Below are positions 25,271 to 27,384 of a DNA stretch of 64,000 nt, piece after piece. Below the pieces are notes generated by a model. The model searched no databases. It saw only the letters and a list, made by a program, of their open reading frames with translations, and was not told the origin of the DNA. The stretch's first letter is position 1; every line of letters starts with the position of its first letter. The stretch lies in IMG/VR virus record IMGVR_UViG_3300025010_000008; one strand, given 5' to 3'. Source of the stretch: a virus. The position numbers were made by a program, and so were the translations under genes.

Positions 25271-25696
25271 GTGGCGAAAAAGACTGTTGGTGTATACCTA
25301 TCCGAACAAATTGACAATGAAATCACCCAACGTGGCGACAACCGAAGTCACACCATCAACCGGGATCTAGAGCGGCTGTATACTATGTACCGGCGAGCTA
25401 TCCGTGAGATACCGCTGTCTGTCAAAGAGGCGTGTCTCATTACCGACGCGATGAACGGCACGCTAATGGACGGTAATACTGCTCAACTGCTGTGGGCAAG
25501 CATTGAGGACGCTATCAGCCTCGAAGGCTTGGCCGCTAAATGGGAGGTTGACGGGCCTGCACTGGTCGAAAAACTGCGTGGTTTAAATGCTTTCCAGTGC
25601 ATGGCTCTTTGTGATACAGCGGAACGTTTCTGGTGCTTAAAAGACGTATCCCTTGAAGATGGGGTGCGGCAGTGTTTTTCAATTCGGGAGGGATAA
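25271..25696 (+). CDS. Hypothetical protein co-transcribed with the RuvC nuclease gene
   Basis: 141 aa, GTG start after gaggagga. The stop lies 2 nt before the nuclease ATG. The N-terminus is beta-strand/helix, possibly RHH-like. Confidence 0.55.
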   Translation: MAKKTVGVYLSEQIDNEITQRGDNRSHTINRDLERLYTMYRRAIREIPLSVKEACLITDAMNGTLMDGNTAQLLWASIEDAISLEGLAAKWEVDGPALVEKLRGLNAFQCMALCDTAERFWCLKDVSLEDGVRQCFSIREG

Positions 25697-25698
25697 AC

Positions 25699-27384
25699 AT
25701 GTTCGGCCACGAGTCAAAGCCGTGCAAAGTCTACGAATACGGCTGTTTACCTCCGACCGAGGGGGAAGAAGCGTTCTTGGAAGAAATTCGGAGGCGACAT
25801 AACCTTTGGAATAGACTGGTTGAAATAGAGCACGACCACCGGGCTAAGGTGCGCGAAGTTTTGGTTGTGCCCGACGATCCAATGCCGGCAATGTACGACC
25901 GACTAAAAGAGCTACGCCAACAAATCAAAGAGGAGCGAAAGCAAAAACGCTCTGGTAAGGTGGACGTGTCAGAATTGCAGCAACAGGTTAAGGAGCTTCA
26001 GGCCGCAATAAAAGAGGAGAAAATGGGACATGCTGCGACCAAGAAAGAAATAGCAGCGACCAACAAACCGCTTCTGCAGGAACTAGACGAGGAGCGCAAA
26101 GCACTCGTTAAAGAGGCTGCCAAAGCAAGTGGTTTGTACTGGTGTAACTACGAGGAAGTGGTTATGGGCTACGACACAGCGCGCAAAAAGGCTATGCGCG
26201 ATAAAACAGAGCTAAAGTTTCACCGCTGGGAAGGCGTTGGTAAAGTGACCGTCCGTTTTCAAAAAGGCTTGCCTGTGCCAGCATTATTTACCAGCGACAA
26301 ACGTTTGCAAGTTGACCCAGTTGAGTCGGATGCCTGGGAACACCCCACACGTTCAGTACGCCGTAAGGCATCACGTACAGCAATCAGATTACGCGTAACC
26401 TCAGATGAGGCTAAGAAACCCGTTTGGATAGAACTGCCGATGGTCATGCACAGGCCGTTACCACCGGAATCGGAAATCCGCAGTGCGTCAATCGTTCGGG
26501 AACGTGTAGGCCGTAAATATCGCTATAAAGCAATTATTACTGCCACAACACCGGATGTACTAAAGGCGCACGGACGCGGAGTAATGGCAATTGACCTGGG
26601 CTGGCGTAAAGTCAAGGATGGTTTACGTGTGGCATTTTGGGCCGATGATAACGACAACAGTGGTTCTTTGGTGTTGCCACATGGCGTATTGTACGAATTT
26701 AATAAGCTGGACGATCTTAAGTCTATTCGCGACACCCACCACAACGAGGCCAAAACGGAATTGGTCGAATGGCTGGCGGGTAACGCTATGCCTGAGTGGA
26801 TGGCCGAGGATACCGCGACCTTATCGCAATGGCGCTCACCAGCGCGCATGGTCAGCCTGGTGAGGAAGTGGAGCGACAACCGCTTTGAAGGTGACGCTGA
26901 TATTTTTAATGTCATGTGGGCATGGAGGGGCCGAGAACTCCATCTCTATGACTGGGAAACTAATCTGCGTGACCAGGTCATCAAACGTAGACAGCATATT
27001 TACCGCAACTTTGCGGCTCGTGCTATTGAACGATGCGATACTATCGTGGTCGAAGACATGGACCTCAGAGGGTTAGCACGTAAGGCATCACCAGAAAGCG
27101 GAACATCCGGCTCACTACCGACCGATCGTCAAAGAGTAATGGCGTCCGTCAGCGAGCTACGACTGGCCCTGGAGAACGCATGTAGACAGGCTGGTGTCGA
27201 TTATATCAAGGAAAAATCAGCGTTCAGCACGCTAGAATGCTGTGAATGTGGTTTTACCGAGCGATACGATGCCGCTGTTCAGATCTGGCATACATGTCCC
27301 AAGTGCCATGCATTATGGGATCAGGATGAAAATGCAGCACGTAACCTGCTGAAGCGACATTCTCTCAAAACTACGGGCAATTGA
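25699..27384 (+). CDS. TnpB/Cas12-like RNA-guided RuvC endonuclease candidate (561 aa)
   Basis: RuvC-I AIDLGWRKV, RuvC-II IVVEDMDLRGL, zinc ribbon CCECG...CPKCH and RuvC-III DQDENAARNLL. The N-terminus KVYEYGCLPPTEGEEAFLEEIRRRHNLWN resembles the TnpB/OrfB WED start. A ~100-aa coiled-coil is inserted. Confidence 0.8.
   Translation: MFGHESKPCKVYEYGCLPPTEGEEAFLEEIRRRHNLWNRLVEIEHDHRAKVREVLVVPDDPMPAMYDRLKELRQQIKEERKQKRSGKVDVSELQQQVKELQAAIKEEKMGHAATKKEIAATNKPLLQELDEERKALVKEAAKASGLYWCNYEEVVMGYDTARKKAMRDKTELKFHRWEGVGKVTVRFQKGLPVPALFTSDKRLQVDPVESDAWEHPTRSVRRKASRTAIRLRVTSDEAKKPVWIELPMVMHRPLPPESEIRSASIVRERVGRKYRYKAIITATTPDVLKAHGRGVMAIDLGWRKVKDGLRVAFWADDNDNSGSLVLPHGVLYEFNKLDDLKSIRDTHHNEAKTELVEWLAGNAMPEWMAEDTATLSQWRSPARMVSLVRKWSDNRFEGDADIFNVMWAWRGRELHLYDWETNLRDQVIKRRQHIYRNFAARAIERCDTIVVEDMDLRGLARKASPESGTSGSLPTDRQRVMASVSELRLALENACRQAGVDYIKEKSAFSTLECCECGFTERYDAAVQIWHTCPKCHALWDQDENAARNLLKRHSLKTTGN

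Follow-up and report, generated by a model that had tools for sequence, protein, structure and literature searches.

A probable Cas12m (type V-M) accessory cassette with diverged but covarying repeats on a temperate phage

Background

When a phage encodes a compact protein with a RuvC domain and a zinc ribbon, no transposase lies beside the gene and a set of repeats follows it, the question arises as to whether the protein is the TnpB of an insertion sequence (IS), an RNA-guided nuclease or an effector of an established CRISPR (short palindromic repeats, clustered and regularly interspaced) subtype. Such a protein, of 561 amino acids (aa), is encoded at 25699-27384 on the plus strand of a 64,000-nucleotide (nt) stretch of viral DNA (IMG/VR record IMGVR_UViG_3300025010_000008), the whole of which is referred to below as the window. 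An earlier reading made from the letters alone (the sequence-only reading) had described it as a TnpB/Cas12-like nuclease on a temperate phage, preceded by a coupled 141-aa partner and followed by a repeat array. The analysis presented here indicates, with a probability of roughly three in four, that the locus is a type V-M Cas12m accessory cassette of a temperate siphovirus, the host of which is an anaerobic member of the Bacillota, and that the effector gene in it is accompanied by a promoter-like element of its own, by six units of repeat and guide and by a terminator.

Identity of the effector

Comparison of the 561-aa protein with sequences in the PDB recovered four Cas12m structures, all of which align with it nearly end to end. 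The closest was 23vw_A (577 aa, deposited as 'CRISPR-associated DNA-binding protein Cas12m'), with an E-value of 2.7e-164 and 48% identity over 540 columns spanning query residues 11-552, and the others were MmCas12m2 (8hio/8hhl, E 4e-48), UnCas12m4a (23vu, E 3e-37) and GoCas12m (8pm4, E 3e-36); a search for a publication behind 23vw and 23vu found none. The protein also gave a full-length match to the PADLOC profile Cas12u1 (positions 2-530 of 533, E 5.5e-141), V-U1 being the former name of V-M, whilst the TnpB models all scored below their cut-offs (NCBIfam guided_TnpB 73 bits against 100, IS200_TnpB 30 against 425 and IS607_TnpB 30 against 350). The curated TnpB models cover just the C-terminal ~125 aa of the protein, and true TnpB structures in the PDB match only the last 50-75 residues, with E ~0.005. 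The full-length Cas12m/Cas12u1 matches, taken together with the confinement of the TnpB models to the C-terminus, identify the 561-aa protein as a member of subtype V-M (Cas12m), and neither as the TnpB of an IS nor as an unclassified effector. Of the two descriptions previously offered, an unclassified miniature type V effector or a TnpB-to-Cas12 intermediate, the first is thus contradicted by the full-length matches, and the second can stand in so far as Cas12m has been discussed in those terms (PMC10442227).

The open reading frame (ORF) is intact, with an ATG start and a GGGAGGG Shine-Dalgarno sequence ahead of it. The motifs on which the assignment to a TnpB/type V architecture had been founded were all located in it: the RuvC-I aspartate D299 (AID299LGW, 26593-26595, +), the RuvC-II glutamate E452 (VVE452DMD, 27052-27054, +), the RuvC-III aspartate D543 (DQD543ENAARN, 27325-27327, +) and, between RuvC-II and RuvC-III, a zinc ribbon formed by C514xxC517 and C533xxC536 (27238-27306, +). 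A split RuvC domain, a CxxC...CxxC ribbon and one of the triads of the V-M family, here D-E-D, are therefore present together, and the helical REC region of Cas12m corresponds to residues ~57-145. More than 170 homologs were found, and an identical (100%) copy occurs on 18 public contigs. In an alignment of 32 relatives with 32-61% identity, most of them from Bacillota metagenomes, 29 have the D-E-D triad and the four zinc-binding cysteines are invariant; a search of IMG/VR for Cas12m relatives using peptide patterns found none. Triads of the D-E-D, H-D-D and N-D-D types all occur within the Cas12m family (PMC11013384).

The repeat array and its RNA fold

The sequence-only reading had noted a repeat array downstream of cas12m, and this was recovered as a mini-array of six units at 27461-27870 (+), defined by repeat homology and covariation. 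A repeat finder recovered three copies; inspection, a structure-pattern scan and alignment give six, namely R0 (27461-27497), R1 (27514-27550), R2 (27586-27622), R3 (27671-27707), R4 (27723-27761) and R5 (27834-27870), all on the plus strand. The units are 37-39 nt long and are separated, in order, by spacers of 16, 35, 48, 15-16 and 72 nt. After R5 the sequence can be read as a terminal guide (AAGCACTTCCAACCGTT..., 27871-27907, +) that has no closing repeat, and the cas12m-array unit is ended by an intrinsic terminator, ACCGCCTTTATAGGCGGT then TTTTATTATT (27922-27947, +), found by a terminator scan. A promoter-like element, TTGTTG-17 nt-TATAAT (27425-27453, +), ends 7 nt ahead of R0 and is the putative leader promoter of the array. 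It was missed by a consensus promoter scan because its -35 hexamer agrees at only 3/6 positions. In the related phage locus L146 the sequence TGATATAAT lies upstream of the array.

Regular arrays adjoin related cas12m genes at four loci (L006, L007, L009 and L148), and the six units are homologous to the repeats of these arrays, which are 37 nt long, conform to GTTGCAnn-NNNN-AG-CTCAG-NNNN-N7-CTGAG-AC and are separated by spacers of 35-37 nt. Within the phage array the mean column identity among the six repeats is 74%, and each unit retains both a stem (positions 9-12/20-23) and a pseudoknot (positions 15-19/31-35). Pairing is preserved in 96.3% of the cells within the array, with double changes at 7/9 pairs (e.g. 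TCCAG/CTGGA, TTCAC/GTGAA and TTTGG/CCAAA), a value that was reached in 0/500 shuffles and compares with 17-57% in slid controls. When the six repeats were combined with 13 from relatives, 97.7% of the cells in the 19 repeats were found to pair, double changes occurred at 9/9 pairs and the slid controls gave 21-51%. Both helices coincide with the stem and pseudoknot of the CRISPR RNA (crRNA) in the cryo-electron microscopy structures of PmCas12m and MmCas12m2 (MmCas12m2: PMC10442227), and the variable first 7-8 nt of the repeats correspond to the portion that those structures show as disordered or trimmed. A strict form of the structural pattern, for which both strands were scanned, has four matches in the array and one in the remaining 128 kb. 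Repeats of ~36-37 nt with a stem and a pseudoknot, such as adjoin other V-M effectors, are thus found next to this one as well, with the difference that their spacing is irregular, unlike that of the characterised loci. No inverted copy of the repeat was found within 24000-29000, a sequence-level result that bears on the matter of a trans-activating crRNA (tracrRNA), and an Rfam search of the array returned no known RNA family.

Promoters inside single repeats were also considered, TATAAT being present at the 5' ends of R2 and R3, but were rejected: the seven sites found compare with 4.2 +/- 2.3 expected, which is not significant, and internal promoters in R2 and R3 are further disfavoured by predicted starts that would truncate the stem. 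Public gene calls include a 64-aa minus-strand ORF at 27716-27910 over R4, R5 and their spacers, which is probably a spurious call across the array.

Not one of the genes called on the phage matched a Pfam family of Cas1, Cas2 or Cas4, and five assemblies have the array in identical form. The lack of these adaptation genes, the drift of the repeats with the fold kept and the constancy of the array across assemblies we read as signs of a hard-wired, non-adaptive guide set, the units of which would be individually maintained by selection.

Similar arrays occur beside cas12m genes borne by other mobile genetic elements, with effectors 56-61% identical to the one described here, at L146 (5376-5485), L147 (7457-8709) and L149 (2174-2263), and in each the repeats are diverged yet covarying. 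The L146 array is laid out like that of the window, a promoter being followed by two repeats that have diverged from each other, then by a terminal guide and lastly by a terminator, and that of L147 has four regular units first and is irregular afterwards. Very short spacers are found in these arrays as well, of 16 nt in L149 and, in the array tail, of 14-15 nt in L147.

Guide targets

Targets of the six guides were sought at several levels. Within the window there were only chance-level matches with three or fewer mismatches (~0.5 expected per 16-mer), and nothing above chance was found in ~1 Mb of related phage and mobile-element loci. Searches of reference phages and plasmids with blastn gave chance matches only, which had E 0.01 or worse and came from Proteobacteria that are unrelated. 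For four of the guides exact 20-mers were sought in IMG/VR, with zero matches. One candidate that emerged among the related loci was a spacer of L026 that matches the cas12m of L146 over 16/16 nt; it was rejected, the match falling in an A-rich run of ENKKP codons and a second match lying at a non-homologous position. Since no guide target was found, the silencing function discussed below is unproven.

Binding, cleavage or decay

The best-supported mechanism is crRNA-guided binding and silencing, and this is because of the published biochemistry of Cas12m. Every Cas12m tested so far, including four canonical D-E-D orthologs as well as those with H-D-D and N-D-D triads, binds double-stranded DNA in a manner dependent on a protospacer-adjacent motif (PAM) and leaves it uncut, having no nuclease activity on this substrate, and protection is exerted through a block of replication or transcription (PMC11013384). 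The heteroduplex formed by Cas12m2 is of 17 bp, which is also the optimal length (PMC10442227). PmCas12m processes its own pre-crRNA, and in the resulting crRNAs of ~50 nt the handle takes up ~33 nt and the guide ~17 nt. By analogy, the transcript of the phage array would be cut, presumably by Cas12m itself, into crRNAs carrying a repeat-derived 5' handle of ~30 nt, folded into the stem and pseudoknot, followed by a guide of ~16-17 nt; the loaded effector would recognise a PAM-flanked target, form an R-loop of ~17 bp and remain bound, so blocking transcription or replication of the target without cutting it. Fixed guides would most likely serve to silence set sequences of competing mobile elements or of the host.

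A number of points weigh against this interpretation. The RuvC triad is canonical, and to judge by sequence alone the protein may cleave DNA, and for none of the six guides was a target found in the window, in the ~1 Mb of related loci, in reference phages, in plasmids or in IMG/VR. The five assemblies with an identical array may come from related bioreactor samples and are possibly not independent. Partial decay might also account for the irregular spacer lengths and for what appear to be truncated repeat remnants in spacers S1 and S2, and a spacer of 16 nt falls 1 nt short of the 17-bp heteroduplex of Cas12m2. Finally, cas12m lies beside a gene resembling that of the anti-CRISPR AcrIE10 (considered below) in three phages, those of the window, L146 and L026, in which the Cas12m proteins are 35-56% identical, and this exceeds the expectation for random placement.

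The first alternative to be weighed is that the protein is an active RNA-guided DNA nuclease, i.e. a miniature Cas12 used by the phage to destroy competing elements. It draws on the intact D299-E452-D543 triad and zinc ribbon and their conservation in 29/32 relatives, and Omura et al. left open the question of whether D-E-D clades cleave (PMC10442227, Discussion). The four D-E-D orthologs devoid of double-stranded DNA nuclease activity (PMC11013384) argue against it, however, as do the inactivity of PmCas12m, MkCas12m and PpCas12m in PAM-depletion assays and the deposition of the closest solved relative, which is 48% identical and aligns with a D-E-D triad, as a 'DNA-binding protein'. Cleavage is accordingly considered unlikely, and the label of nuclease given in the sequence-only reading is doubtful.

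A second alternative is that the locus is a decaying relic, the array having been eroding since adaptation was lost and the system no longer working. Spacers that range irregularly from 16 to 72 nt, fragments like the 3' ends of repeats within S1 and S2 and the failure to find guide targets would all be expected of such a relic. Against this, the 561-aa ORF is intact with all of its catalytic and zinc-binding residues, compensatory substitutions have kept both helices in all six repeats and so point to the RNA fold being under selection, the array is framed by a promoter-like element and a terminator, and similar diverged or short-spacer units stand beside intact cas12m genes in L146, L147 and L149. 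Decay of the whole system is thus an improbable explanation.

A functioning cassette that binds and silences continues to be preferred, and from it a bolder proposal can be derived. The phage Cas12m could be a hard-wired multi-guide repressor, in which six independently evolving units, some having spacers as short as 16 nt and all held foldable through compensatory mutation, silence fixed genes of the host or of rivals during lysogeny or infection, which is co-expressed from an anti-defence-type operon controlled by the AcrIE10-like ribbon-helix-helix (RHH) protein, and whose array is perhaps shared with the type IV-B-like complex described below. This is put forward as speculation, and taken as a whole it is more probably wrong than right; if it were true, a CRISPR effector would have been exapted by a virus for gene regulation instead of adaptive immunity.

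The 141-aa gene upstream of cas12m

The gene immediately upstream of cas12m (25271-25696, +) begins with GTG, is preceded by a GGAGGA Shine-Dalgarno sequence and encodes a protein of 141 aa. As had been noted, its TAA stop codon, which ends at 25696, is separated by 2 nt from the ATG of cas12m on the same strand, and the two genes are probably co-transcribed. The protein has ~65 homolog clusters and no match in Pfam, NCBIfam, PHROG or PADLOC. A profile of its family matches the AcrIE10 entries 8ji9_D, 9m7t, 9m71 and 9uer, with E-values of 2e-4 to 4e-4 over profile positions 4-119, almost its entire length, and an AlphaFold2 model with a mean confidence (pLDDT) of 91.9 has AcrIE10 (9m71_A) as its only significant fold match in the PDB (Foldseek, TM-score 0.62/0.75, probability 1.0). 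From these profile and fold matches the 141-aa protein is, as far as sequence and modelled structure can indicate, a remote member of the AcrIE10 family, with a predicted RHH domain and an anti-CRISPR-like domain. In AcrIE10 the N-terminal RHH represses its own promoter and the helical anti-CRISPR domain binds Cas7 of type I-E* (PMC13530269, PMC11317147). An anti-CRISPR role for the phage protein is a lead, not a result.

The sequence-only reading took this protein to be a coupled partner of the effector, and it might accordingly be a dedicated accessory factor or regulator of Cas12m, translationally coupled to it. The 2-nt gap on a common strand, the predicted DNA-binding domain and the recurrence of the neighbourhood in L146 and L026, where Cas12m is only 35-56% identical, could all be cited for such a role, as could a review figure in which many V-M loci have a transcription regulator (PMC11656645). 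The distribution of the two genes speaks against it: Cas12m was found within 5 kb of none of the 119 loci with homologs of the 141-aa gene (JGI metagenomes and IMG/VR), and the gene was present in 0/17 Cas12m loci from genomes. The two co-occur only in the window, L146 and L026, and in both of the latter another small gene intervenes, that of L146 encoding 57 aa and that of L026 encoding 101 aa next to a Cas12m just 35% identical. Moreover, the partner of AcrIE10, to which the protein is homologous, is Cas7 of type I-E* (PMC13530269). On the co-occurrence counts the accessory role was rejected as a candidate, and little probability is attached to it. The 141-aa gene is an independent, common phage gene of a variable anti-defence-like region, beside which the cas12m cassette has landed; its product may set the level of transcription of the operon, outside the Cas12m machinery.

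Several possible regulatory sites were observed in the vicinity. A near-consensus promoter, TTGACA-17 nt-TAGAAT, at 23891-23929 is overlapped by three direct 11-nt repeats (TCTGTTAGAAA) and lies upstream of a string of genes encoding the 68-aa, 287-aa and 141-aa proteins and Cas12m. The 11-nt repeats are a candidate operator, possibly for the RHH protein, and another candidate is a conserved GC-rich hairpin of 7 bp at 25225-25245, after the 287-aa gene, which is also found in L146. The AcrIE10-like gene of L026 is preceded by TTGACA-17-TATACT, which contains two GTATAC palindromes.

Absence of insertion sequence features

The last alternative, an ordinary IS200/IS605 or IS607 TnpB that works with an omega RNA and rides in the phage as a transposon passenger, is already contradicted and has next to no probability: the C-terminal RuvC/zinc-ribbon matches that would favour it (Pfam Cas12f1-like_TNB at 5e-10, NCBIfam guided_TnpB and a PHROG annotation of 'transposase') reach no further than the ~125 C-terminal residues and are below the TnpB cut-offs, whereas the Cas12m/Cas12u1 matches are full-length, TnpA is absent nearby, the gene is single-copy in the window and what lies on its 3' side is an array of repeats and spacers that has a scaffold of the crRNA type, and no single omega RNA. 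The sequence-only reading had reported that no transposase was adjacent, and indeed no Y1 or IS607-type serine transposase was found in the flanks of cas12m, the flanking genes being those of a phage; the sole serine recombinase is the phage integrase (490 aa, 38605-40077, -). All 18 public contigs have the same phage context. IS200/605 ends and additional copies, which would have marked the gene as part of an IS, were looked for in the window and flanks and none was found. The sole inverted pair that spans the region, 25281-25296 with 27906-27921, agrees at 13/16 nt, which is the chance level, and begins inside the 141-aa ORF. With no TnpA, no terminal inverted repeats and no extra copies within the window, an IS element was rejected.

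Phage context and neighbouring features

The carrier had been taken for a temperate phage, and its gene content agrees with this: genes for a tape measure protein, Dit, other tail proteins, an amidase, a serine integrase, CI/Cro-like helix-turn-helix proteins, SbcCD, a Rep-O/DnaB loader and methyltransferases are those of a temperate siphovirus. The Phage_rep_O/DnaB_2 gene (55836-56735) contains tandem repeats of 19 to 24 nt (GGGTTGCACGATTGTGCAA...) at 56142-56255, which probably represent iterons of the phage's origin of replication.

A type IV-B-like module is present on the same phage at 17368-22705. It comprises Csf1/Cas8 (17368-18063), Cas11 (18064-18528), Csf2/Cas7 (18518-19699), Csf3/Cas5 (19675-20382), a Cas6 (20379-21014), a CysH-like phosphoadenosine phosphosulfate (PAPS) reductase (21007-21774) and a 312-aa membrane protein, and a second gene of the PAPS reductase family lies at 60370-61080. 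Type IV-B systems normally have neither a Cas6 nor an array. In the related phage L023 there is no Cas6 and the PAPS reductase comes straight after Csf3, and a search of IMG/VR for relatives of the phage Cas6 found none. No second array that might belong to the type IV-B-like module was found in the window, and the only one adjoins cas12m.

Two self-cleaving ribozymes scored above the Rfam gathering thresholds, an HDV-like (hepatitis delta virus-like) ribozyme (HDV-F-prausnitzii, 24196-24266, +, 49.6 bits) and a type II hammerhead (29755-29814, +, 47 bits). The block between the two consists of the 287-aa gene, the AcrIE10-like gene, cas12m with its array and a DUF2325 gene, and the ribozymes may cut a long phage transcript into segments. 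The 287-aa protein (24351-25214) is modelled with a pLDDT of 94.6 as two alpha/beta domains joined by a 75-residue helix, and no sequence or fold match to it was found in the PDB; it has 89 homolog clusters and is encoded upstream of the AcrIE10-like family gene in 11/72 loci. Just after the array, at 28067-29512, lies the gene for a 481-aa DUF2325-related protein (phrog_11092), homologs of which are encoded on the opposite strand next to cas12m in L146 and, again on the opposite strand, next to the type IV-B genes of L023. At L148 it is an AcrVA2-like protein (PF26125, 10262-11284) that is encoded directly after the Cas12m array.

Significance

Subtype V-M is established and its carriage by prophages has already been reported (PMC11656645). 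What was not found described is the combination seen here of divergence within an array with a compensated crRNA fold, 16-nt spacers and a phage on which a type IV-B-like module and an AcrIE10-like gene reside too. The combination raises the interest of the locus somewhat, though no part of it is yet tied to a demonstrated function. The assignment turns an apparent orphan miniature Cas12 into a Cas12m, a member of a family that has been characterised structurally and biochemically and is used in base and epigenome editing, and a compact 561-aa ortholog that is 48% identical to the nearest solved structure would be a modest addition to that toolbox. Repeats that have diverged with the crRNA fold kept provide natural evidence of individually selected units, a non-adaptive array of this kind may show how arrays persist without Cas1-Cas2, and short spacers, of 14-16 nt, are seen again in three related loci that are independent of one another. 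With what would be two binding-only effectors and an AcrIE10-like gene, the phage is a good system in which to study the use by viruses of non-cutting CRISPR effectors against hosts and competitors.

Comparison with known systems

The closest counterparts are the characterised V-M systems, represented by MmCas12m2 (8hio/8hhl), GoCas12m (8pm4), PmCas12m and 23vw. Homology to these is full-length, with 561 aa here as against 577-614 aa, and extends to the WED-REC-RuvC architecture with a zinc ribbon between RuvC-II and RuvC-III, to a 37-nt repeat whose stem and pseudoknot occupy the positions seen in the solved crRNAs, to the lack of adaptation genes and to carriage by a mobile element; no anti-repeat resembling a tracrRNA was found nearby. 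The differences are that the phage protein has the canonical D-E-D triad, which a part of the family shares, unlike the H-D-D or N-D-D of the best-studied members, and that the array, in contrast to those characterised, is irregular, with diverged yet covarying repeats, spacers of 16-72 rather than ~36 nt and no closing repeat. V-M systems show enrichment on plasmids and also occur on some prophages (PMC11656645), and in contrast to the plasmid-borne members the carrier here is a temperate phage.

The 141-aa protein is comparable with AcrIE10, a bifunctional Acr-Aca protein of Klebsiella plasmids (9m71, 8ji9), with which it would share an N-terminal RHH and a short helical domain (PMC13530269). 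It differs in being only ~18% identical, in its length of 141 as against 113-127 aa and in its occurrence in a Bacillota phage, and the likeness is one of sequence and fold only.

Cas12m is regarded as close to TnpB (PMC10442227), and the phage protein has in common with the TnpB of IS200/IS605 elements and its omega RNA (e.g. ISDra2 TnpB, PDB 8h1j) a RuvC/zinc-ribbon core and, presumably, RNA-guided targeting. It is, however, ~150 aa larger, with a REC insertion, and its guides would come from a repeat-spacer array, and the locus lacks the TnpA, the transposon ends and the single long omega RNA of IS200/IS605 elements.

TldRs, which are TnpB-like nuclease-dead repressors, provide programmable DNA binding and repression with fixed guides. 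Cas12k and Cas12c are likewise RNA-guided DNA binders that do not cut (PMC11013384). The mode of action expected of the phage Cas12m is the same as in these systems, that is to say non-cutting binding of DNA and repression by means of guides that are fixed and not acquired, but it belongs to another lineage, its catalytic residues are intact and it would draw on several guides from an array instead of one omega-RNA-like guide.

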